Source: an uncultured Clostridia bacterium (GTDB lineage: Bacteria; Bacillota; Clostridia; TANB77; CAG-508). Taken from it: a stretch of DNA of 64,000 bases. Both the position numbers and the translations under genes were made by a program. Positions within the stretch are counted from its first letter, which is position 1. Each line of letters starts with the position of its first letter. The notes beneath the pieces are model-generated. The model saw only the letters and a program-made list of their open reading frames with translations, had not been told where the DNA came from and searched no databases. The stretch is taken from positions 110,514 through 174,513 of the forward strand of contig CALXVM010000001.1 in assembly GCA_944392105.1 (NCBI GenBank), in the 5' to 3' direction. Below, piece by piece: positions 3,749 through 64,000 of this stretch.

Positions 3749-4198
3749 ATGAGAATATCAGATATAATAGAAGATTTTATAAAAGAAATGTTTGACGATA
3801 CAGATTTTATAGAAATACAAAGAAATGACTTAGCACAACATTTTAATTGTGTTCCATCCCAAATAAATTATGTCATTTCCACAAGATTTAAACCGTCACA
3901 AGGTTATTATGTAGAAAGCAAAAGAGGTGGAGGCGGACATATAACTATAAAAAGGATAAACACAACTAAAAGTAATGCACTAATGCATATTATATCTAGT
4001 ATAGGAGATAAAATAACCGCTCAAGAAGTAGATATTTTTATTAGAAACTTGCTTTCTAAAGACTATATAAATAGAAATGAAGCTAAATTATTAAAAGTAG
4101 CAACAAGTGATAATGTACTTACAATATCAAATGATATAAAGGATATTATAAGAGCAAAAATATTTAAGAATATGCTTATAAATTTAGTGGAAGATTAA
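3749..4198 (+). CDS. ctsR: CtsR, repressor of class III stress genes
   Basis: Contains MRISDIIEDFIKEMF...QRNDLAQHFNCVPSQINYVISTRF. It is the first gene of the ctsR-mcsA-mcsB-clpC operon. Confidence 0.9.
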   Translation: MRISDIIEDFIKEMFDDTDFIEIQRNDLAQHFNCVPSQINYVISTRFKPSQGYYVESKRGGGGHITIKRINTTKSNALMHIISSIGDKITAQEVDIFIRNLLSKDYINRNEAKLLKVATSDNVLTISNDIKDIIRAKIFKNMLINLVED

Positions 4199-4370
4199 GT
4201 AAAAGTTAGAATAGGAATTAAGAAGAAAAAACAAATGACGATAAATATTAAAATAATAAAAAGGTTAATTAAATAAAAGTTAAATGAATATTACAATAAG
4301 ATTTTAGAAAAAAATTAAGTTAAACAGATAAAAAATAAACAAACATAAAAAATAAAGGAGGTAGATTTTT

Positions 4371-11099: not shown

Positions 11100-11492
11100 A
11101 TGATAGAAGTTTTAATAGGATTAATTTCAGGGATTATAAGTGGAACGGGAATGGGAGGAGGAACTATTTTAATATTACTCCTTTCTATATTTATGGGACT
11201 AGACCAACATGTGGCACAAGCTACTAATTTAGTATTCTTTGTGCCTACTGCAATTGCTGCAATTTTTATTAGTTTAAAAAAGAAAATTATAGATTTAAGA
11301 GCAGGAGTAGTAGTAATAATAGTAGGAGTTGTGGGAGCTACAATAGGAGCTATAATTTCTAGTAAAATGAACGTTAATTTATTAAAAAAATTTTTTGGAA
11401 TTTTTTTACTCATTATAGCAATTTATGAAATTTATTCTTGGTATAAGATGTATATAAAGAAAAAAATAAGACATACTAAAGTTAAGAAATAA
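11100..11492 (+). CDS. Half-size TauE/SafE (DUF81) family anion exporter, second half
   Basis: GLISGIISGTGMGGGTILILLL... It pairs with the preceding half-size gene. Confidence 0.55.
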   Translation: MIEVLIGLISGIISGTGMGGGTILILLLSIFMGLDQHVAQATNLVFFVPTAIAAIFISLKKKIIDLRAGVVVIIVGVVGATIGAIISSKMNVNLLKKFFGIFLLIIAIYEIYSWYKMYIKKKIRHTKVKK

Positions 11493-55289: not shown

Positions 55290-55397
55290 TTTTTTTAGCC
55301 AAATAGTTTAAAATAAACATTTGGCAATTTTTAAATAAAAGCACATATATTAATAAGGAAATATGTATGTGCAATACAAATTAATATAGTTATGAAT

Positions 55398-55445
55398 GCC
55401 TTGATAGCTCAGTTGGTAGAGCAAGGGACTGAAAATCTTTGGTGC
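55398..55445 (+). pseudogene. Degenerate 5' half of tRNA-Phe (acceptor, D and anticodon arms only), a duplicated fragment
   Basis: gccttgatagctcagttggtagagcaagggactgaaaatctttgg. It matches the intact tRNA-Phe up to the anticodon arm and lacks the T arm. Confidence 0.7.
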
Positions 55446-55453
55446 AATTTAAT

Positions 55454-55529
55454 GCCTTGATAGCTCAGTTGGTAGAGCAAAGGACTGAAAATCCTTGTGT
55501 CACTGGTTCGATTCCAGTTCAAGGCACCA
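55454..55529 (+). tRNA. tRNA-Phe (anticodon GAA)
   Basis: 76-nt cloverleaf with anticodon loop cTGAAaa and 3' CCA. Confidence 0.9.
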
Positions 55530-55605: not shown

Positions 55606-55645
55606 TTTCAGTTCAAAGACACGAGTTCGATTCTCGTTCAAGCCA
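55606..55645 (+). repeat. tRNA 3'-end-like fragment (T arm plus acceptor 3' strand), a probable att-site remnant next to the integrase
   Basis: cacgagttcgattctcgttcaagcca resembles tRNA-Phe cactggttcgattccagttcaaggca but cannot pair with its 5' strand. Confidence 0.5.
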
Positions 55646-55666
55646 CATAATATTTTAGAAGTAGAA

Positions 55667-56842
55667 TTAGGCAATGGCTACTTCTTTTTTTGTACCAAAT
55701 ACATTTGCCATAACTTTTCCTGTATTATTTACACTACTTGAATCTAAATGTGCATATAAGTTAGCAGTAGTATTATAATTTGAATGACCAAGCCACGCTT
55801 GAATTTCTTTCATATTCGCACCATTTTTTAATAATATACTTGCACAAGTATGCCTTAAATCGTGAAAACGAATAATTTTTAAATTCTTTCTTTTTAGTAA
55901 TTTTAAAAATGTTTCTGTTACATAGTCTGGTCTAATTATATTTCCACAATTATCTACACAAATATATTCTAAATAATCTTTATTGTAACTATCTCCACAT
56001 AGTTCTCTGTTTTTTTCTTGTTTTTCTTTTAGTTCAATTAAAAAAGATTTTACAATAGGTTCTAAAGGTAAAGTCCTTTTACTTGATTTTGTCTTTGTTT
56101 TATCTCTTATAATTAGTTTTCCGCTTGACTGTGTAATGGTGTGATCTATTGTAATTGTATCATTTTCAAAATCAACTGCACTCCATTTCAACCCAATAAC
56201 TTCACTTCTTCTAAAACCATAAAAACAATCTATCATTACAGGAATTTCTAATTTAGTTCCAATAACTTCATTTAGTAATATTTTAACCTCATTACTTGTG
56301 TAGAATTTTGGCTTATATTCTTCAATTTTAGGTAAATCAACCTTGTCAGCAGGGTTAGATAAAATAATATCTGTTTTCATAGCATATTGTAAGGCTTTCC
56401 TTATATTTGCGTGATAATGTTTAACTGTATTTCCAGAAAGACCATCATCTAATAAATATTGGTAAAATTCTTGTATGTGCTTTGGCTTTATATTTTGTAG
56501 TGTTATTTTTGTATTTTTGAAATAATCTGTCATTCTGCCATTTATAACACCTTGATAGCCATTTAAGGTTGTTGGCTCAACACTTGCTGAAATCATTTTT
56601 AGCCATTTTTTCATATAGTCTATAAAGAGTATATCTTCATTATCAATATTATCGCTATTTATTTCTTCTTGAAACTTTTTCCTAATCTCTTCTTTTTTAG
56701 TTTCTGCCTTTTTCTTATTTCCTTTTATAGCTTTTATACCTGTTGACTTCCATTTTGTTTCCCATTTTTCATTTTTCTTATAACTTAAAACGGCTTGATA
56801 AATACCGTTTCTTATCTGTAAGCTAGCTGTTACATTTATCAT
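55667..56842 (-). CDS. int: Tyrosine-type site-specific integrase
   Basis: C-terminal catalytic motifs RFHDLRHTCASILL and LGHSNYNTTANLYAHL. GGAAGGAG site. Confidence 0.9.
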   Translation of the reverse strand: MINVTASLQIRNGIYQAVLSYKKNEKWETKWKSTGIKAIKGNKKKAETKKEEIRKKFQEEINSDNIDNEDILFIDYMKKWLKMISASVEPTTLNGYQGVINGRMTDYFKNTKITLQNIKPKHIQEFYQYLLDDGLSGNTVKHYHANIRKALQYAMKTDIILSNPADKVDLPKIEEYKPKFYTSNEVKILLNEVIGTKLEIPVMIDCFYGFRRSEVIGLKWSAVDFENDTITIDHTITQSSGKLIIRDKTKTKSSKRTLPLEPIVKSFLIELKEKQEKNRELCGDSYNKDYLEYICVDNCGNIIRPDYVTETFLKLLKRKNLKIIRFHDLRHTCASILLKNGANMKEIQAWLGHSNYNTTANLYAHLDSSSVNNTGKVMANVFGTKKEVAIA

Positions 56843-57190: not shown

Positions 57191-57640
57191 TTAAACAAGG
57201 CATTTTTGCGATTTAAGTTTCATATTCATATTAATTTTTTTAGGAACATCATTTGTTACATTTAATTTTCTATCTATAATTAAATTTCCTTTTTTATTTC
57301 TATGATAAGCACTTAAATTCCATTTTGCAAAATCATAATCAGAAATAGTATTGTTATGAAATGATAATTCAGCATTGTCTTTGTTTAATAATGCTTTTAA
57401 TTGTTCATAAGAATTATCATCTTTTTTAGGTCTTTCATAGTTTTTATAATATTCTCTATTATATTCAGCTTTTTTCTGCATTGATTTTTTATGCCTTATT
57501 TCTTTCTCCTTAGTATATCTTGTGTCTTTTTTCACTACTTGAGATATATAGCTTTGTGAAACTCCAATAGTTTTGGCAATAATCTCTTGTTTTTGGTGTT
57601 CTTCAAAATACATTTGTAAAATTTCTTCTTTTTTACTCAT
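57191..57640 (-). CDS. HTH transcriptional regulator (sigma-70 region-4-like)
   Basis: ...QKQEIIAKTIGVSQSYISQVVKK; GGAGG site. Confidence 0.5.
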   Translation of the reverse strand: MSKKEEILQMYFEEHQKQEIIAKTIGVSQSYISQVVKKDTRYTKEKEIRHKKSMQKKAEYNREYYKNYERPKKDDNSYEQLKALLNKDNAELSFHNNTISDYDFAKWNLSAYHRNKKGNLIIDRKLNVTNDVPKKINMNMKLKSQKCLV

Positions 57641-57914
57641 TTTGACCTCCTTTCTTTACTTATATTTTTTACTTGCACTATTTTAGATATAAAAACCCTA
57701 TATAAAGTACAAGATGTAATTTATACTATAATTTGACAAATATAATTATTTATTGTAATATATTCTTATAAGAAAAGTATTAAAATTAACATAAAGTAGC
57801 CGTTAATACTTCATAATATAAGATAGATTACATTTCTATTATAGAGTAATACTTTTTGTGTGTCAATAGATTACATTAAACTTTTTGAAAAATTTTTATG
57901 AATAGGAGAATATT

Positions 57915-58883
57915 ATGAGAATGAATTTAGAATATGGCTTTAATAATGAGTCATTACCAAAATTTAAAGAATATAAAATAAAGGAAATAAACAATATTAA
58001 ATATGTTGTTCCTAAAATTCTAAAAGAAAATATGTCAAACTATTCTTTAATCGATTTTGATGACTACAAAGAAGATGATAAGCCTCTAATTGATTTTATT
58101 AATTTAGGGAAATTATCTTTAGAAGAAAAAGAAAATACTGATAGTCTAGTAATTGAATATGTAAATAAATATGGACTTTTAGGACTTATACATGATTTCC
58201 CAGTAAATAGATATTATACATTAGAAAAGGAAGTTTTACTAAAAGAATTTAATTATATAAATAATAAAGATTATTTTACAACAATAGAGCTAATTGAATA
58301 TTTTAAAATATTCTTTCCTACTACTACTGAAGAAGAAATAAAAAAACTAATAGAGAAAATAAATAAATTTATTTATGAGCATAGTATGGAAAAATTTATT
58401 TCTCCAGAAATCAATAATTTAATTTATAAAAATGAAAAATATTGTGAGCGAGTAAATATGATTATAAAATATGCACAATTTATGTATAATACTTTAAAAG
58501 AATTGAAAAAAGATAATGGAGAATATATTGATACACGAGAAATAAATAAATTAGAATCAAACCATATAAGAGTAAATTTAGAATATGATGGCTTAACAAT
58601 ACATATTAGAAGTTTAAAAGAATACATAGATGAAGATTTTAAATTATATGCAATACAAGAAAAGAAATACTTAAAACTATGTAAGCATTGTGGAAAAGCA
58701 TTTATTGCAAGTAACCCAAAAGCAATATATGATACATTTAGCTGTAAAAATCAAGAAAATGTTTACAATAGTAGAGCAAGGTTAAGTTCGAATGTTACAA
58801 AGACCAAAAACGGACTAACAGTTAAAGTAACACCAAGTGAAGAATTGTCAAATGAACTATTAAAAAATCCAGAAAAAAATTAA
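57915..58883 (+). CDS. Hypothetical protein with a C-terminal zinc ribbon
   Basis: CKHCGKAFIASNPKAIYDTFSCKNQ; no other recognisable domain. Confidence 0.4.
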   Translation: MRMNLEYGFNNESLPKFKEYKIKEINNIKYVVPKILKENMSNYSLIDFDDYKEDDKPLIDFINLGKLSLEEKENTDSLVIEYVNKYGLLGLIHDFPVNRYYTLEKEVLLKEFNYINNKDYFTTIELIEYFKIFFPTTTEEEIKKLIEKINKFIYEHSMEKFISPEINNLIYKNEKYCERVNMIIKYAQFMYNTLKELKKDNGEYIDTREINKLESNHIRVNLEYDGLTIHIRSLKEYIDEDFKLYAIQEKKYLKLCKHCGKAFIASNPKAIYDTFSCKNQENVYNSRARLSSNVTKTKNGLTVKVTPSEELSNELLKNPEKN

Positions 58884-59051
58884 ATATAATATGATAAAAA
58901 GGGTATTTGCTGTACTCTTTTTGTTTTATGCAAAAGCACTTTATATACAACCTGTTTACACTCATATGTGAGCAATAAGAATAAGTATCATTAAAAAACA
59001 AAATTTAATATAATTCAAATGGTTGTAGAACGAGCAGTAGGAGGTGTGTAT

Positions 59052-59396
59052 ATGAGTGCAATAGATAGATTATATTCTAGTACCAATAAAACTATAAAGA
59101 AATCAATTAATATTGATGATAGTTTATATAAAAGGTTAATGAGATTTACAAAAAAGAATTATGACGCAACATTTAGTGAGGTTATAAATGTGTGCATAGA
59201 AGAATATATTTATAAAAATCAACCATACTTTTATGAAAAGCCTGAAAATGAAACAGTTACATATAGGAGTATTATGATCAGAAAGGAAAATTTAAGCAAC
59301 TTGCAAAAATTTCACAAAAAAACTGGTATTTCTGTAACAAGATTATTAAATTGTGCTGTTAAAGAATTTTTAGATAACTATGATAATAAAAGATAA
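59052..59396 (+). CDS. Hypothetical 114-aa protein, paralog A (MSAIDRLY...)
   Basis: AGGAGGTG site. About 55% identical to the protein at 60276-60614. Confidence 0.5.
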   Translation: MSAIDRLYSSTNKTIKKSINIDDSLYKRLMRFTKKNYDATFSEVINVCIEEYIYKNQPYFYEKPENETVTYRSIMIRKENLSNLQKFHKKTGISVTRLLNCAVKEFLDNYDNKR

Positions 59397-59472
59397 GTTA
59401 ATATAAAATATCAACTTACCTTATATTATAAAACACAATGTAGTTTATTATATAATGAGTTTATATAATAAG

Positions 59473-60112
59473 CTATTTTTTATTTAAGGCAATATAATAT
59501 GCTAAACTGCTTTGATAAGATGAAAGTTCAAAATCTATTTTTTGATATTCATAAAATTTTTTCCTTTCTTCTGCTGAAAAATTAGATGTAAGTTCTAGTG
59601 TTAATTTATTAAACTTGCGATTAAGTTCAACATAATCTTTTATATCAAACAAATCATTTATATGTACTTCTATACTATCATCTACCTTATCCATATTGCT
59701 TTTGTTAAACCAATTCAAGTCAATTTTAATATTTTTTATAGATTCTAGTTCATAAACTCCGTTTAGTTTTAAAGAAAATTGCAAGACCATCTAATTTATT
59801 ATCAAAAAATAACGGAAAAATCATTTGTGAAAAATATTCTACTTCATCATTTTCTACAATTTTTTTGAAGTTATCATTTAAAAGTAAATATAAATCTTCT
59901 GAAAACTCTTTATTTTTCCACTCTTTTATTAAATTGAGCATATCTGTACTTAAAGGCTTATGCCAGTAATTATCATAGTCCAAAGTAATATCATTTTTTT
60001 CATCTACTATTCCATATTGAATTGTTTTTAAATCAGCAATTAGAATATTAGATTTTACATTAGAGCCGTTAAAAGATTTTAATAAATCTACACACTTTTC
60101 TGAAATTTGCAT
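59473..60112 (-). pseudogene. Hypothetical protein of about 212 aa, split by a frameshift in the T/A tract near 59770-59785
   Basis: Two overlapping ORFs (59750-60112 and 59473-59790) read continuously after a 1-nt shift. AAAGGAGG site precedes the start at 60112. Confidence 0.45.
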
Positions 60113-60275
60113 AGGTAAACCTCCTTTCTAATATTTTCACATATTATATCTTAAAAGTGATTTTAATTCAACCTACTATCGTGTATGCATACACGATAAA
60201 ACTAAGTTACATACTACAAACGATTTAAGTATAATATTCGTAAAAAGGTTAGATATTAATTACTGGAGGTGTAAT

Positions 60276-60614
60276 ATGAGTGCAATAGATAGGTTATATA
60301 AAAAATCAAACTATACAATTCAAAAAAGTATAAATTTAGAAGATGGATTATATACGAGATTAAAAGAAATAGTAGATAAAGACTATGACGCAACAATTAG
60401 CGATATGATAAATGTTTGTATTGAAGATTTACTATCTGCTGGAAATGTAAAATATTATGCTAAGCCAGAAGATGAAATAACAATTTATAGGAGTGTAATG
60501 ATTAGAAAAGAAAATGTAGAAGCATTGAACAAAATAACACAAGAAACGGGAATTTCCCTAACAAGATTAGTAAATATAGCAATGAAAGAATTTTTAGATA
60601 AATATAAAAAATAA
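60276..60614 (+). CDS. Hypothetical 112-aa protein, paralog B (MSAIDRLY...)
   Basis: GGAGGTG site. Paralog of the protein at 59052-59396. Confidence 0.5.
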   Translation: MSAIDRLYKKSNYTIQKSINLEDGLYTRLKEIVDKDYDATISDMINVCIEDLLSAGNVKYYAKPEDEITIYRSVMIRKENVEALNKITQETGISLTRLVNIAMKEFLDKYKK

Positions 60615-60791: not shown

Positions 60792-60820
60792 TTGATTTTA
60801 ATGAAAGAACATGGTAAAAT
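60792..60820 (+). promoter_or_regulatory. SigA promoter TTGATT, 17 nt, TG-n-TAAAAT driving the HAD/rSAM/SDR/rSAM operon
   Basis: -35 at 60792-60797; extended -10 at 60812-60820. Confidence 0.55.
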
Positions 60821-60857
60821 ACTATTTGTAAATTAATGTATACGAGGAGGTTGTCTA

Positions 60858-61607
60858 ATGAAAGATTTTTTAAAGAAAAAATTAGCTGATTTAGATTTGG
60901 TTATTTTTGATTTAGACGGTACTTTAATTGATTCAAATGGTACACATAATTATTTGGATATCGAATTAGCTCGCTCACTTGGAGAAAATAAAAGTTCAGA
61001 AGAAATCTTACAAGAAAGAGATGAGTTTATAAAAAATAATAGTACAGGCGATATATACTTAAATTATTGTGAGTATTTAAAAACAAAATATAATTCTGTT
61101 TTATCGGGAAAAGAAATTTTACAATTTCGAAGAAATTTATCAAAAAAAATTTCAAAAGATATTAAATATAAACCAGATGCAGACAAGATTATAAAATATT
61201 TAAAAAATCAAAATATAAAACTTGCTTTGGGCACAGTTTCAAGAAAAGAAACCATAGATATTTATATCAATGAAAATGAAAATATCAAAAATAAATGTAA
61301 TATTAAAGATTATTTTGACCTAATAGTAACTAAAGACGATGTAAAATTTAAAAAACCTAATCCAGAAGTTTATAATAAAATAATTGAAATTTTTCAAATA
61401 AATGACTTATCAAGATGTATTGTTATAGAAGATTCATTAACAGGTGTTCTTGCGGCAAAAAATGCTAATCTTGATGTTATAGTTATTTATGATGAATATT
61501 CTGATAAAGATAGAGAAAAAATAAATGAACTTGCAGATTATAGAATTTCAAATTTTAAAGAATTAATAAATTTGTTTGAAGAAAGTAAAAAGAGAGGAGA
61601 AAATTAA
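60858..61607 (+). CDS. HAD-superfamily hydrolase (beta-phosphoglucomutase-like, subfamily IA)
   Basis: LVIFDLDGTLIDS...; GAGG site. Confidence 0.7.
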   Translation: MKDFLKKKLADLDLVIFDLDGTLIDSNGTHNYLDIELARSLGENKSSEEILQERDEFIKNNSTGDIYLNYCEYLKTKYNSVLSGKEILQFRRNLSKKISKDIKYKPDADKIIKYLKNQNIKLALGTVSRKETIDIYINENENIKNKCNIKDYFDLIVTKDDVKFKKPNPEVYNKIIEIFQINDLSRCIVIEDSLTGVLAAKNANLDVIVIYDEYSDKDREKINELADYRISNFKELINLFEESKKRGEN

Positions 61608-62598
61608 AATGAGTTCACCATGTGTATTTAGAAAAAGAGAAACCAGCAATTATTTAGCATTTATTGAAATAACAAATAATTGCAACATGAAATGTAAACA
61701 TTGTATGAATTGGTCTGTTGAAAATTCAAACGAGGGTTTTGAAAAAGAAAATATACTAAAGTTAATAAAAGATCTATATGATAATAACACAGAGGAAATA
61801 TATATATCTGGAGGAGAACCTTTATTATATCCATATATTGATGAAGCAATTTTATATGCTAATTCATTAGGAATAAAAGTAACTCTTGCAACTAATGCTC
61901 TTGAAATTGCTAATCATTTAGAAACAATAAAAAAGGGTGTTCAATTAGTATCAATTAGTTTAGATGGTATAGGAGAAACACATGATAATTTTAGAGGTGT
62001 TCCAGGAGCATTTGACAATTGTATAAAAATGTTTAAATTATTGAAGCAAAATAACATAAAAACAAGAATAAGTGCTATGATTTGGAAAGAAAATGTTGAG
62101 CAATTAGATGAAATGATTTCTCTTGCGAAATCTTGTGGAGTTTCTAAAGTTAATTTGGCATTTTTAATACCTGAAGGAAGAGCAAAGACAGATGATACTA
62201 TCAAACTACCTATTGAAATGTATAAAGAAATAGTTGATAAGGTAGCTGAGTTAAGACAAAAATATAAATCAGAAAATTTTGACGTAGAAATTAGAAGAAA
62301 TAATTTATTAGATGAAAATAGTATAGATTGTCCAGGAGGAAGAAACCTAATACATATAAATGTAAATGGAAAAGTATCACCTTGTTCATGGATTGCAAAA
62401 CTGGATAAAGATGATGAATTTTCTGCATATTGGCCAGAAAGTAGTATTAAACAATGTATAGATAAGTTTAGTGGTTTTGAAAAATTATTAAAATTAAGAA
62501 AAGAAAAATATGGATATTGTGGATGTATTGCTTTATCTAAAATTTATAATGGGAATTTTACTGATATAGATCCATTAAATAGTTTTTTGGAGATGTAG
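61608..62598 (+). CDS. Radical SAM enzyme with a Cys-rich C-terminus (SPASM/twitch-like)
   Basis: CNMKCKHC (CxxxCxxC) near the N-terminus; C-terminal CPGG...C..W...YGYCGC. AGAGGAG site; the ATG abuts the HAD stop codon. Confidence 0.75.
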
Positions 62599-63343
62599 AT
62601 GAATATGAATAAACATGCAATAATAACTGGTGTATCGTCAGGAATAGGTGAATGTATAGCTAATTACTTTATAGAAGAAGGCATATATGTTTTTGGAATT
62701 GATGAGAAGATTTCTAATAATAATAAAATAGAATTTTTTAATTGTGATATTAGAAATGAAGAAAAAATAATTGAAATAATCAATAATATAAAAGAAAAAA
62801 CAGATAGTATTGATTATTTGATAAATTCCGCTGGTATATTTTGCTATCAACGGAAGAGATTTAATTGAAAATCTTTCAAAGGAAGAATGGCAAAATGTTA
62901 TTGATGTTAATTTAACAGGTACTTTTTTGATAACAAAATATTCTATACCATTATTAAAAAATTCTAGCAATGGAAATATAATAAATTTTAGTTCGGAACA
63001 AGTGGTTTTACCACAAACTAAAAGTGCACCATATGCAATAACTAAAGCAGGAATTGAGATGTTTTCTAAGATACTTGCGTTTGAATTAATGGATAATAAA
63101 ATAAGAGTTAATACGATATCATTAGCTTCTGTAAAAACTAATTTCTTGAAAAGATATAAAAAAGATGATGATATAATAAATGAAATGATGAAAAAAACTG
63201 ACAAAAACATGCCTTTTGGAATTATAAAACCATATGATGTATATGAATTAGTTAAGTATTTGATTAAAGAAGATAACAAAATAACAGGTCAAACTATTCT
63301 TATGGATAGTGGGGTTGTTTTAGATATTAATAAGAAAAAGTAA
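62599..63343 (+). pseudogene. Short-chain dehydrogenase/reductase (SDR), interrupted by a +1 frameshift in a T4 tract at 62839-62842
   Basis: N-terminal TGVSSGIG (Rossmann) ... NSAGIF, then the frame shifts to ...SAPYAITKAG (YxxxK). One fewer T restores a single ORF. Confidence 0.65.
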
Positions 63344-63355
63344 GAGGAGAAATTT

Positions 63356-64000
63356 ATGAAGAAAATAGAATTTGATATAAATGAAAATAATAAACTATAT
63401 TTCCTTCCTGAATATAATAGATTTGCTTTAAATAAGATTGAGTCTGAAATAGAACCAGATTATTATGATACTTCATTAGTAAAATTAAGATTAGAAATTT
63501 CACATATGTGCAATGGAAGATGTAAATATTGTTTAGTGTTTGGAAATAATGTGGAAAATTTTGATACAATAGATATAAAAGAATTTTGGAAAGAATTTAG
63601 TAATAAAGACTGGTTTAAAAATTTAAAAAGTATATTTATTATTGGAGGAGAGCCATTACTTTTTTTTGATGAAATAAGTTTTATTTTAGATAATTTTAAT
63701 GGAAGGGTAAGTTTTTCAACAAATGGAACTTTATTAACAGAAGATATGGTTAAAAAGTTTTCAAAATCAAATGTTTCCGTATATATTTCATTAGATGGTC
63801 CAGCATTTGAAGATAATATTAATAGAGTTTATACAAATGGTGAATATATGTATCCAGATATTATAAAAGGAATTAATTTACTACAACAATATAATGTAAA
63901 ATTTGGAATATTTATGGTAGCAAGTAAAGAAACAATACATAAAGCTAAAGATATGATTTTAGAATTAGATGAAAAATATTCTCCATCTAGAATTGGATAT
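63356..64000 (+). CDS. Second radical SAM enzyme (partial; continues beyond the window)
   Basis: CNGRCKYC (CxxxCxxC); AGAGGAG site. Confidence 0.7.
   Translation, partial: MKKIEFDINENNKLYFLPEYNRFALNKIESEIEPDYYDTSLVKLRLEISHMCNGRCKYCLVFGNNVENFDTIDIKEFWKEFSNKDWFKNLKSIFIIGGEPLLFFDEISFILDNFNGRVSFSTNGTLLTEDMVKKFSKSNVSVYISLDGPAFEDNINRVYTNGEYMYPDIIKGINLLQQYNVKFGIFMVASKETIHKAKDMILELDEKYSPSRIGY

Follow-up and report, generated by a model that had tools for sequence, protein, structure and literature searches.

A mobile operon with three radical SAM enzymes from gut Clostridia: a possible antimetabolite cassette whose relatives carry aminoacyl-tRNA synthetases

Results and discussion

An eight-gene operon encoding three radical SAM enzymes

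The last part of a 64,000-nt stretch of DNA from an uncultured Clostridia bacterium (GenBank GCA_944392105.1, contig CALXVM010000001.1, positions 110,514 to 174,513; hereafter the window) holds, from position 60858 to its end, the beginning of an operon for radical S-adenosylmethionine (radical SAM, rSAM) enzymes, a short-chain dehydrogenase/reductase (SDR) and a HAD-family phosphatase. Here we describe the complete operon, the mobile element that carries it and a family of related clusters, several of which include aminoacyl-tRNA synthetase (aaRS) genes, and we consider whether the operon could be a biosynthetic cassette for an antimetabolite.

Within the window, the genes for the HAD phosphatase, the first rSAM enzyme (rSAM1), the SDR and the second rSAM enzyme (rSAM2) are found as four open reading frames (ORFs) on one strand with nearly zero spacing. 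A single nucleotide separates HAD from rSAM1, the SDR start at 62599 abuts the rSAM1 stop, and a ribosome-binding site (AGGAGG) lies 8 nt ahead of the HAD ATG. A preliminary description of the window had taken these genes for the operon as a whole. The four packed, co-directional genes are indeed present, but they are only part of it. An identical HAD protein occurs on 17 metagenome contigs, and two contigs of ~12.5 kb each (L001 and L002), which are 99.95-100% identical to the window across the overlap, supply all eight operon genes together with a Mob_Pre relaxase gene (Table 1). The gene order is HAD-IA phosphatase, rSAM1, SDR, rSAM2, a protein with the fold of methylthioadenosine/S-adenosylhomocysteine nucleosidase (MTAN), a third rSAM enzyme (rSAM3), a PfkB-family kinase and a histidine phosphatase. 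The last four genes lie wholly past base 64000, and the operon has three rSAM enzymes and not the two first described. The sequence beyond the window, which the preliminary description had called for, thus completed rSAM2 (395 aa) and added four genes and the second copy of a 14-nt repeat; the sister clusters linked to aaRS genes had not figured in that description.

A plausible sigma-70 promoter precedes the operon. This site had been described as a consensus promoter, a label that it does not bear out: it matches the consensus at 9 of 12 positions, and because a scan returned 85 promoter-like sites in the real sequence versus 73 +/- 9 in shuffled sequences, the match alone is not above chance. 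The site is kept in two related loci (L011 and L013) and, despite the chance-level scan, is plausibly the best-placed promoter candidate.

All operon genes are under purifying selection, with ratios of non-synonymous to synonymous substitution rates (dN/dS) of 0.06-0.37 at dS values of 0.2-0.45, and the cassette is common in gut metagenomes, where clusters at 90% identity hold 93-118 member sequences. One natural protein (P0270, 568 aa, from a metagenome) is a fusion of HAD and rSAM1, with the two parts 55% and 70% identical to their counterparts in the operon. The existence of this fusion in one lineage ties the phosphatase to the radical chemistry. The histidine phosphatase, unlike the SDR, looks dispensable. 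Its gene is split by frameshifts in three relatives (L018 10718-11297, L033 13729-14314 and L012 10020-10600) and is missing from six others (L015-L017, L024 and L035-L036).

Table 1. Features of the operon and of the element that carries it. Positions refer to the window unless a contig is named.
Feature	Position	Strand	Basis
Plausible sigma-70 promoter	60792-60820	+	TTGATT-17-TAAAAT, extended -10 TG
HAD-IA phosphatase, 249 aa, motif FDLDGTL	60858-61607	+	Pfam, NCBIfam
rSAM1, 329 aa, CX3CX2C at C25/C29/C32	61609-62598	+	Radical_SAM 1.4e-25
SDR N-terminal part, 81 codons, frame 0	62599-62841	+	TGxxxGIG cofactor motif, NSAG
TTTT run, candidate +1 slip site UUU_U followed by frame-0 Cys codon UGC	62839-62842	+	Alignments
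SDR C-terminal part, 166 codons, +1 frame	62843-63343	+	Catalytic Ser, YxxxK
rSAM2, first 215 of 395 aa, CX3CX2C at C52/C56/C59	63356-64000 (runs past window)	+	Radical_SAM 1.3e-18
MTAN-fold protein, 217 aa, PNP_UDP_1 superfamily	Outside window, L001	Operon strand	Pfam
rSAM3, 298 aa, C16/C20/C23	Outside window, L001	Operon strand	Pfam
PfkB-family kinase, 314 aa, GAGD motif	Outside window, L001	Operon strand	Pfam, NCBIfam
Histidine phosphatase, 195 aa, RHGE motif	Outside window, L001	Operon strand	Pfam, NCBIfam
Mob_Pre relaxase	Outside window, L001, after histidine phosphatase	-	1.7e-44
SDR frameshift sites in other loci	L011 9250-9270; L012 5780-5800; L013, L033/L034 9489-9509
tRNA-Phe(GAA)	55454-55529	+	ARAGORN, Rfam
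Candidate left attachment (att) core, 14 nt, GAAGTAGAATTAGG	55657-55670	.	blastn-short, 14/14, E 3.6e-4
Tyrosine integrase, 391 aa	55667-56842	-	Phage_int_SAM_5/SAM_3/Phage_integrase on identical L002 gene
Excisionase-like HTH_17 protein, 68 aa	56935-57141	-	PF12728 on identical L001/L002 gene
Element backbone genes	57191-60614	.	ORFs, Pfam RHH_3 and Sigma70_r4
HTH/sigma70_r4-like protein	57191-57640	-	Pfam Sigma70_r4
orf322	57915-58883		ORF
orf105/orf120	59473-60112	-	ORFs
Two ribbon-helix-helix paralogues, 57% identical	59052-59396 and 60276-60614		RHH_3

Predicted activities of the operon enzymes

The eight proteins were compared with NCBIfam, Pfam and PADLOC; all matches were at superfamily level and none reached an equivalog cut-off. 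The HAD-IA and rSAM assignments of the preliminary description hold at this level (Table 1). For the HAD protein, Pfam HAD_2 matched with an E value of 1.5e-26, two subfamily models scored above their cut-offs (TIGR01509, 51.8 versus 29.4 bits; TIGR01549, 31.9 versus 23.3 bits) and the DxDGT nucleophile motif is present; in NCBIfam it reached no specific equivalog (HxpB, 84.7 versus 191). The PfkB kinase gave weak NCBIfam matches to ribose-1-phosphate kinase and to domain I of the heptose-7-phosphate kinase RfaE.

All three rSAM enzymes combine the CX3CX2C motif of the SAM cluster with a set of C-terminal cysteines, which places them among the SPASM/twitch enzymes. In rSAM1, the cysteine-rich tail noted in the preliminary description was borne out: C241, C259 and C306 are invariant, as is C5, and the C-terminal set fits a single, twitch-like auxiliary cluster. 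The rSAM2 family has seven further invariant cysteines, the full SPASM set, and rSAM3 has four (C208, C226, C271 and C274), consistent with one auxiliary cluster. The Pfam SPASM model itself scored 20.0 bits on rSAM3, against a cut-off of 21.5, and did not match rSAM1.

None of these proteins has a close characterized relative. The best NCBIfam matches of rSAM1 are to AhbD/NirJ types, far under cut-off. Searches of PDB sequences returned distant matches for rSAM1 (SkfB, then BlsE) and rSAM2 (CteB and anaerobic sulfatase-maturating enzyme, anSME), nothing for rSAM3, and for the nucleosidase-like protein, before a profile was brought in, a marginal MTAN match (E 0.098). For rSAM3, an AlphaFold model with a predicted local distance difference test (pLDDT) score of 91 has BtrN as its top fold match, followed by SuiB (a peptide-modifying enzyme), DesII, BlsE and viperin. 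These similarities of the rSAM enzymes to PDB entries are at superfamily level, with 12-17% identity. A test of rSAM2 as an anSME failed (TIGR03942, 56-59 versus 349 bits), and no sulfatase is present at any locus. Given that three rSAM families lack characterized relatives, new radical chemistry is likely.

The 217-aa protein belongs to the nucleoside phosphorylase-I/MTAN superfamily by its domain (PF01048, 39.1 versus a cut-off of 25.1), its fold and its ribose-binding Glu and purine-protonating Asp. Its predicted structure (pLDDT 94) matched MTAN in Foldseek with an E value of 5e-12, and template modelling (TM) scores to MTA/SAH nucleosidase and futalosine hydrolase were 0.65-0.74. Across the family, the ribose-binding D-M-E and purine-protonating S-D motifs are invariant, and the region of the water-activating Glu is replaced by an equally invariant T-P-L-x-S. 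Because the residues for ribose binding and purine protonation are kept in an MTAN-type fold, this protein is probably an active purine nucleosidase or phosphorylase.

A conserved enzyme core with exchangeable partners

The nucleosidase-like protein, rSAM3 and rSAM2 served as queries to gather related loci, which also came from a scan of species genomes and a metagenome scan; the core was defined by tblastn with a protein panel and by gene-context look-ups. Roughly 30 distinct loci were recovered. Five genes (rSAM1, SDR, rSAM2, the MTAN-fold protein and rSAM3) are found together, mostly in this order, and recur in 7 GTDB species genomes and at about 20 further metagenome loci. The named hosts are uncultured gut Clostridium and Clostridia metagenome-assembled genomes (MAGs), a Lachnospiraceae MAG and the cultured Paenibacillus sp. 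FSL H7-0350. The adjacency of rSAM and SDR is kept in every variant.

The core families are small and sharply bounded. The rSAM2 and rSAM3 families extend down to 43-44% identity (E ~1e-76 to 1e-107), after which identity falls to 31-32%. Homologues of rSAM2 reach 43% (E 1e-107), and the next match is at 31% (E 1e-9); for rSAM3 there is one intermediate match at E 1e-41. For rSAM1, 62 representatives were found at E<=1e-30 among 1.84 billion proteins.

Around this core the clusters differ. Variant A, the form in the window (also L001-L020, L024-L025, L033-L036 and others), adds the HAD protein, PfkB and often the histidine phosphatase; L018 also has NUDIX and Metallophos proteins. Variant B (L021-L023 and L026-L027) has a cysteinyl-tRNA synthetase (CysRS), an unknown protein of 345 aa, an NhaC-like transporter and a HAD protein. 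In variant C (L031, L032, L044, L046 and L084) the core is accompanied by two unknown proteins, an ABC-2 exporter, NTP_transf_5, a metallo-beta-lactamase-fold (MBL) hydrolase and an isoleucyl-tRNA synthetase (IleRS); the L046 contig stops before any IleRS. Variant D (L030) has a DegT aminotransferase, a family 2 glycosyltransferase (GT2), another rSAM enzyme and a Zeta-toxin-like kinase. Variant E (L045 and L050) has a B12-dependent rSAM enzyme, a protein resembling pyridoxal phosphate (PLP)-dependent decarboxylases, an unknown protein and a leucyl-tRNA synthetase (LeuRS). Variant F (L085) has a serine-dehydratase-like protein, an SDF transporter, a nucleotide pyrophosphatase, a SurE nucleotidase, a CysRS-like gene and a relaxase. 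A further locus, L083, encodes ABC exporters and an AMP-binding/PP-binding (A-T) protein of the nonribosomal peptide synthetase (NRPS) type, and distant variants also hold a GH5 enzyme. In a pairwise hhalign comparison of the unknown accessory proteins from variants B, C, D and E, no probability reached 5% and no common family emerged.

The flanks of variant A vary by genome and consist of ordinary housekeeping genes, with serine recombinases at some loci. Among 72 flank proteins, which matched 105 Pfam families, no family occurred in more than two loci, and there was no recurring exporter, regulator or aaRS. Since these flanks differ from genome to genome, the cassette behaves as a self-contained insertable unit. 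Elsewhere, then, it lies among housekeeping genes, at a different site each time and with no characterized function; it is not a well-characterized pathway conserved at this locus outside islands, the finding that the preliminary description had named as the one to count against a new accessory system. An Rfam search of the window and 10 related loci returned only tRNAs and an unrelated glmS ribozyme, and no riboswitch.

Aminoacyl-tRNA synthetases in the sister clusters

Of the functional clues that the sequences offer, the strongest is the combination of one enzyme core with three different synthetase specificities. By model scores, the embedded synthetases are genuine, full-length enzymes. 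CysRS scored 516 bits on TIGR00435 (cut-off 340), IleRS scored 862 bits on TIGR00392 (cut-off 621) and 727 bits on a MupA-type model, and the two LeuRS scored 803 and 986 bits on TIGR00396 (cut-off 548). An identity of CysRS as an MshC-like cysteine ligase was rejected, because the MshC model gave 263.6 versus a cut-off of 485 and cysS gave 516 versus 340, and because a DALR anticodon domain is present. In variant F, the assignment of the CysRS-like gene (507 aa) is on the Pfam tRNA-synt_1e domain, with no TIGR00435 score.

The synthetase genes share the strand of their clusters and are 75-270 nt away from cluster genes, and the LeuRS gene of L050 lies between cluster genes. CysRS precedes the cluster in L026 and follows it in L021, where a decayed copy is also found upstream; the two CysRS are 65% identical, a divergence similar to that of the core proteins. 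IleRS closes its clusters, after the MBL gene in Paenibacillus and after rSAM2 in the gut MAGs, and in L084 only an IS21 copy intervenes between cluster and IleRS. The linkage thus survives rearrangement of gene order. In gut variant C, a tRNA-Ile(GAT) gene lies between rSAM2 and IleRS (L032 11222-11297 and L044 11201-11276); L046 also has the gene (11201-11276), followed directly by a second, cut-off tRNA. This tRNA-Ile may be dedicated to the cluster, or it may mark a site of integration. No T-box was found by Rfam ahead of the cluster aaRS genes.

Several of these synthetases carry altered class I motifs. All three cluster IleRS, which are of the IleRS2 type (L031 19644-, L032 11336-14455 and L084 15205-18321), read P-H-H-G-T where P. 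megaterium IleRS2 (PmIleRS2), T. thermophilus IleRS and human IleRS read P-H-V/Y-G-H, so that the fourth residue of the HXGH motif is changed from His to Thr. Two cluster CysRS have KMGKS instead of KMSKS. The HHGT and KMGKS motifs are at most indirect hints that the embedded synthetases could be inhibitor-insensitive copies. The hyper-resistance of certain IleRS2 enzymes to mupirocin comes from a different change in the HXGH motif (G/AXHH) (PMC10485003). In the clusters for albomycin and agrocin 84, the embedded aaRS genes (AbmK, also a source of seryl-tRNA, and AgnB2) have an established role in immunity, and a swap from LeuRS to MetRS among related clusters has been interpreted as a change of target (PMC8323819). 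The sequences of the synthetases described here would be compatible with immunity or with substrate supply alike. Neither the window nor the variant A flanks yielded a CysRS- or IleRS-like match, so that the window's own variant lacks a target copy of the kind present in its sisters.

The SDR coding sequence is split between two frames

The SDR domain assignment of the preliminary description was upheld (adh_short, 8.5e-42 on the joined product), but the gene is not a single ORF, a point that had gone unnoticed. Frame 0 from 62599 meets a stop at 62866-62868, and the remainder of the protein lies in the +1 frame to 63343. All SDR motifs (ITGVSSGIG, NSAG and S..YAITK) occur in one polypeptide only if 62599-62841 is joined to 62843-63343 by a +1 shift; the joined protein would have 247 aa, the same length as in-frame orthologues, and alignments to these place an extra base near 62848.

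Sequencing error as the cause of the shift was ruled out, since it is present at 17 independent loci and in the window, across at least four diverged lineages. It occurs in every contig of the window's lineage and also in L011, L012, L013, L033 and L034, which come from other assemblies and encode proteins 78-93% identical to those of the window. About 30 more distant loci have the SDR in frame. Because the shift is common to diverged lineages, it represents an inherited 1-nt insertion.

Both halves of the gene remain constrained. Among the frameshifted lineages, at dS ~0.4, dN/dS is 0.16-0.24 for the N-terminal part and 0.08-0.21 for the C-terminal part, and no extra stops or indels have accrued. 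Alignments and dN/dS show that the frame under conservation switches at the TTTT run: upstream of it, a GGT/GGA difference is synonymous in frame 0, and downstream the window and L011 differ non-synonymously in frame 0 (TGC-TAT-CAA versus TGC-GAT-AAA) but only synonymously in the +1 frame (GCT-ATC-AAC versus GCG-ATA-AAC). In L033 there is a conservative Ala-to-Val change just downstream of the switch point. Together, the shared shift and the dN/dS values point to recoding rather than gene decay.

Two other ways of obtaining the C-terminal part were considered. Re-initiation fails to account for the data, as the earliest canonical start in the +1 frame (TTG, 62927) lies 28 codons (84 nt) past 62843, inside the conserved stretch, and these 28 codons are conserved. 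Transcriptional slippage is unlikely on a T-run of only 4 nt. From a handful of substitutions and the dN/dS values, we infer that the most economical explanation would be +1 ribosomal frameshifting at UUU_U while the Cys codon UGC occupies the A site.

The broken SDR frame common to all contigs of the window's lineage, and the split or lost histidine phosphatase of several relatives, could also be taken to mean that the cassette is a decaying remnant of a pathway already broken in this lineage, but this is very improbable given purifying selection on both SDR halves and on the other genes across lineages that share the frameshift, the lack of further stops or indels and the abundance of the cassette in gut metagenomes.

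The mobile element

By its gene content, the vehicle of the operon is an integrative mobilizable element: it has a tyrosine integrase, a putative excisionase (Xis) of the HTH_17 type, a Mob_Pre relaxase, 14-nt direct repeats and a nearby tRNA gene. The second copy of GAAGTAGAATTAGG lies 347 nt past Mob_Pre, outside the window (L001 12556-12569, equivalent to window ~69412-69425), and the repeats at both ends imply an element of ~13.8 kb. Its G+C content is 23.9%, compared with 28.3% for the rest of the window, and the eight-gene operon is its sole recognizable cargo. The preliminary description had placed the operon on an integrase island at tRNA-Phe. An element with an integrase 4 kb upstream of the operon is indeed present, but its start lies ~128 nt downstream of tRNA-Phe and follows a tRNA 3' fragment; it does not begin within the tRNA gene.

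The tRNA-Phe region contains a 47-nt duplicate detected by blastn. Just upstream of the intact tRNA-Phe gene, 45 nt of its 5' part are repeated (~55397-55441), and a 3' fragment with the T-arm and acceptor of a related tRNA lies directly before the 14-nt repeat (~55610-55646). Since 5' and 3' tRNA fragments flank the site, repeated integrations at tRNA-Phe are suggested. No transporter and no aaRS were found among the backbone ORFs. The ribbon-helix-helix paralogues flank a divergent pair of unknown genes (orf105/orf120) just upstream of the operon, and they may be regulators or an antitoxin-like module.

Proposed function and alternatives

We propose, with a probability of about 0.5, that the operon is a biosynthetic cassette for a small metabolite derived from a phosphorylated sugar or nucleoside, most likely an antimetabolite. 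Enzymes that act on nucleosides, sugars and phosphates surround the core in every variant, so that the small-molecule, sugar or nucleotide chemistry envisaged in the preliminary description agrees with both the enzyme set and the accessory genes of the relatives. The case for an antimetabolite comes from the sister clusters, in which the core is embedded with CysRS, IleRS (plus tRNA-Ile) or LeuRS, with exporters and with an NRPS-type A-T protein. This association suggests that the family may make antibiotic-like molecules aimed at protein synthesis. The narrower proposal that its targets would be the aminoacyl-tRNA synthetases themselves we consider roughly half as probable as the proposal of an antimetabolite cassette.

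In the pathway we envisage, the three SPASM/twitch enzymes would abstract hydrogen from a ribose-, hexose- or cyclitol-like scaffold, with alcohol oxidation, diol dehydration, the making or breaking of C-C bonds or rearrangement as possible outcomes. The SDR could then reduce the resulting carbonyl, giving net deoxygenation or epimerization. The MTAN-like enzyme may cleave or exchange a purine base or clear 5'-deoxyadenosine, and the kinase, phosphatases and nucleotidases would set the phosphorylation state, either to activate the product or to keep it as a harmless phospho-form. The variable accessory genes could add an amino acid or a sugar and export the product. The sister versions would thus yield aminoacyl-conjugated, aaRS-directed compounds together with a resistant copy of the target. 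Given that it has neither an aaRS nor an exporter, the window's version would make an un-acylated core compound or a phospho-prodrug.

Several observations weigh against this proposal. Because the window's version has no aaRS, exporter or recognizable immunity gene and its flanks contain no recurrent partner, a toxic secreted product would be hypothetical for it. The absence of the MTAN-fold gene from the sub-variant L038-L040 (rSAM2 67% identical), in which rSAM2 is followed by rSAM3 (L038 3663-3706), means that the nucleosidase is not indispensable. No enzyme is orthologous to a characterized one, the likeness of folds and profiles being at superfamily level, and production of the SDR requires a frameshift. 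The embedded aaRS could supply aminoacyl-tRNA as a substrate instead of conferring resistance, and the tRNA beside IleRS may mark an integration site. Finally, the best NCBIfam matches of rSAM2 are peptide maturases (PapB, CteB-like, anSME, FibroRumin, YhhB and DynA).

The main rival is defence against phages or plasmids through an intracellular nucleotide analogue. Here the rSAM enzymes would turn a cellular nucleotide into a chain-terminating or toxic analogue that the kinase, phosphatases and nucleosidase make or clear. The cassette is carried on mobile elements, some relatives adjoin WYL, AAA and antitoxin genes, and the window's variant, with its nucleotide-handling enzymes but neither an exporter nor an immunity gene, fits a product that stays in the cell. 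There is a precedent in Ophion, which pairs an rSAM enzyme with a phosphatase and a phosphoribosyltransferase (PRTase) (10.1101/2025.09.30.679545). All three rSAM enzymes also match PADLOC models of prokaryotic viperins (pVips) with E values of 1e-12 to 7e-23, but these matches cover the shared rSAM core only and no other operon protein matches PADLOC. The viperin-type enzyme raised in the preliminary description can be set aside, as the viperin model NF038283 (viperin_w_prok) gave 66.7 bits for rSAM1, 46.2-48.2 for rSAM2 and 37.9 for rSAM3 against a cut-off of 180. Exporters, aaRS, GT2 and an NRPS-like A-T protein in the sister clusters are traits of biosynthetic clusters, and the flanks of variant A are housekeeping genes rather than defence islands. 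We therefore regard a defence function as improbable.

The remaining alternatives are less likely than defence. A primary-type pathway for sugars or nucleosides (salvage of 5'-deoxyadenosine, anaerobic nucleoside or sugar catabolism, or synthesis of a surface-glycan sugar) would make use of the MTAN-like enzyme, PfkB kinase, phosphatases and SDR, could accommodate the GT2, DegT aminotransferase and GH5 of distant variants, and would suit a cassette found among housekeeping genes in several genomes. No known salvage route needs three SPASM/twitch enzymes, however, and the family is tiny, sporadic and borne on mobile elements. It has no uptake transporter, regulator or riboswitch, and the aaRS and exporters embedded in its relatives are ill-suited to catabolism. 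Such a pathway is accordingly unlikely, if only slightly more so than defence.

SPASM/twitch enzymes are typical maturases of peptides made on the ribosome and then modified post-translationally (RiPPs), and the operon might modify a ribosomal or scaffold peptide encoded elsewhere, as for mycofactocin or PQQ. The peptide-maturase matches of rSAM2 are in keeping with this, as are the ABC-2 transporters, NTP_transf_5 and MBL hydrolase of variant C, and the aaRS and tRNA genes could feed an aminoacyl-tRNA-dependent extension of a peptide. The maturase scores are, however, 4- to 10-fold under the family cut-offs. A mobile cassette would be expected to bring its own substrate gene, and none was found: in agreement with the preliminary description, no conserved precursor peptide was detected in the 243-nt leader, between the genes of relatives or in the long stretches upstream of the L031 and L083 clusters. 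The only ORF in the leader has 21 codons, begins with TTG and overlaps the promoter, and because the operon genes abut there is no space for a precursor gene between them. No Pfam match to PqqD or to a RiPP recognition element (RRE) was found on the operon proteins, and with the SAM-cluster motif beginning at residue 25, 52 or 16 in rSAM1, rSAM2 and rSAM3, the 24, 51 and 15 preceding residues leave no room for an RRE domain. HAD, PfkB, MTAN-like, SurE and NUDIX proteins are all small-molecule enzymes. A RiPP-like role is for these reasons quite unlikely. In the Paenibacillus locus, 1.9 kb without a convincing ORF (L031 6340-8210) separates glmS (ribozyme 4051-4275) from the first cluster gene.

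Relation to known systems

The closest parallels to the proposed biosynthetic cassette are the clusters for albomycin (AbmK, a SerRS, with rSAM enzymes AbmJ and AbmM) and agrocin 84 (AgnB2, a LeuRS). Like the sister clusters, these are small and join a full-length aaRS paralogue to rSAM or other SAM enzymes, an SDR and tailoring of the phosphatase type, and their aaRS identity likewise shifts from one related cluster to another, with MetRS in actinobacterial relatives. Some albomycin-like clusters also encode HAD hydrolases (PMC8323819, PMC12691670). In contrast to albomycin and agrocin 84, there is no orthology to Abm or Agn enzymes at the level tested and no Trojan-horse part of the siderophore or opine type; the hosts are anaerobic gut Firmicutes, and the window's variant is without an aaRS.

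Individual enzymes resemble those of sugar and aminoglycoside chemistry. BtrN is the twitch-domain 2-deoxy-scyllo-inosamine dehydrogenase of 2-deoxystreptamine biosynthesis, and DesII, BlsE and viperin act on sugars or nucleotides. The compact rSAM3 is BtrN-sized, and BtrN is its best PDB fold (E 1.4e-11; TM 0.75 on target). BlsE is a top sequence match for rSAM1, yet the BlsE family model scored 61.7 bits against a cut-off of 400. The rSAM gene beside an NAD(P) reductase (SDR) gene recalls the logic of the AprD4/AprD3 pair, a likeness of gene adjacency alone, and the DegT aminotransferase and glycosyltransferase found in aminoglycoside and blasticidin pathways also occur in distant variant D. 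Identity to BtrN, DesII and BlsE is 12-17% and the similarity is at fold level, and genes for 2-deoxy-scyllo-inosose (2-DOI) synthase, cytosylglucuronic acid (CGA) synthase and an aminoglycoside scaffold are absent.

The 217-aa protein shares its fold, its ribose-binding Glu and its purine-protonating Asp with MTAN, futalosine hydrolase (MqnB) and HpnG, the last being its best NCBIfam match. These three enzymes act downstream of rSAM enzymes that form adenosyl products. MqnB and HpnG adjoin the rSAM enzymes MqnE and HpnH, and the MTAN-fold gene likewise sits between rSAM genes. It differs from all three in its identity of ~15%, in the replacement of the Glu12 region by T-P-L-x-S and in scores far under cut-off (26.6 versus 187), and the rSAM enzymes of the operon are unlike MqnE or HpnH. 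With pVips and Ophion, finally, the operon shares an rSAM enzyme with nucleotide kinase or phosphatase partners on mobile DNA; it differs in missing the viperin threshold, in having three SPASM/twitch enzymes rather than one of viperin type, and in having relatives with exporters and aaRS.

Implications

The kind of system is already known, namely an rSAM biosynthetic cluster that may include target-copy resistance. Literature searches turned up no account of this cluster. Its set of core enzymes, the modular way in which these are combined with Cys-, Ile- and Leu-tRNA synthetases and their dissemination in gut Clostridia by small mobile elements appear to be undescribed; the preliminary description had called the operon a candidate for an undescribed accessory system. 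To our knowledge, no natural inhibitor of CysRS is known.

A more speculative scenario, which we hold to be improbable in its full form, joins these elements. The family would make a new, modular class of aaRS-directed antimetabolites in Firmicutes of gut and soil. Three rSAM enzymes would build a common warhead, exchange of the aminoacyl-adding genes along with the matching immunity synthetase would redirect it to CysRS, IleRS or LeuRS, and the window would carry the warhead-only form, spread among human-gut Clostridia by the 13.8-kb element. With its SDR made by programmed +1 frameshifting at UUU_UGC, output could follow the speed at which Cys codons are read. Apart from the pathway, the SDR is a candidate case of programmed +1 frameshifting in a Firmicute metabolic gene, of which, as far as we know, there are few.

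If the proposed biosynthetic function is correct, the operon would represent an uncharacterized rSAM natural-product family from the human gut microbiome that, at 7-8 genes, is compact enough for expression and is horizontally mobile, and whose targets could be read from the genes themselves (CysRS, IleRS or LeuRS in the sister clusters). A scaffold retargeted between synthetases in this way would be of interest for antibiotic discovery and for understanding microbial competition in the gut.

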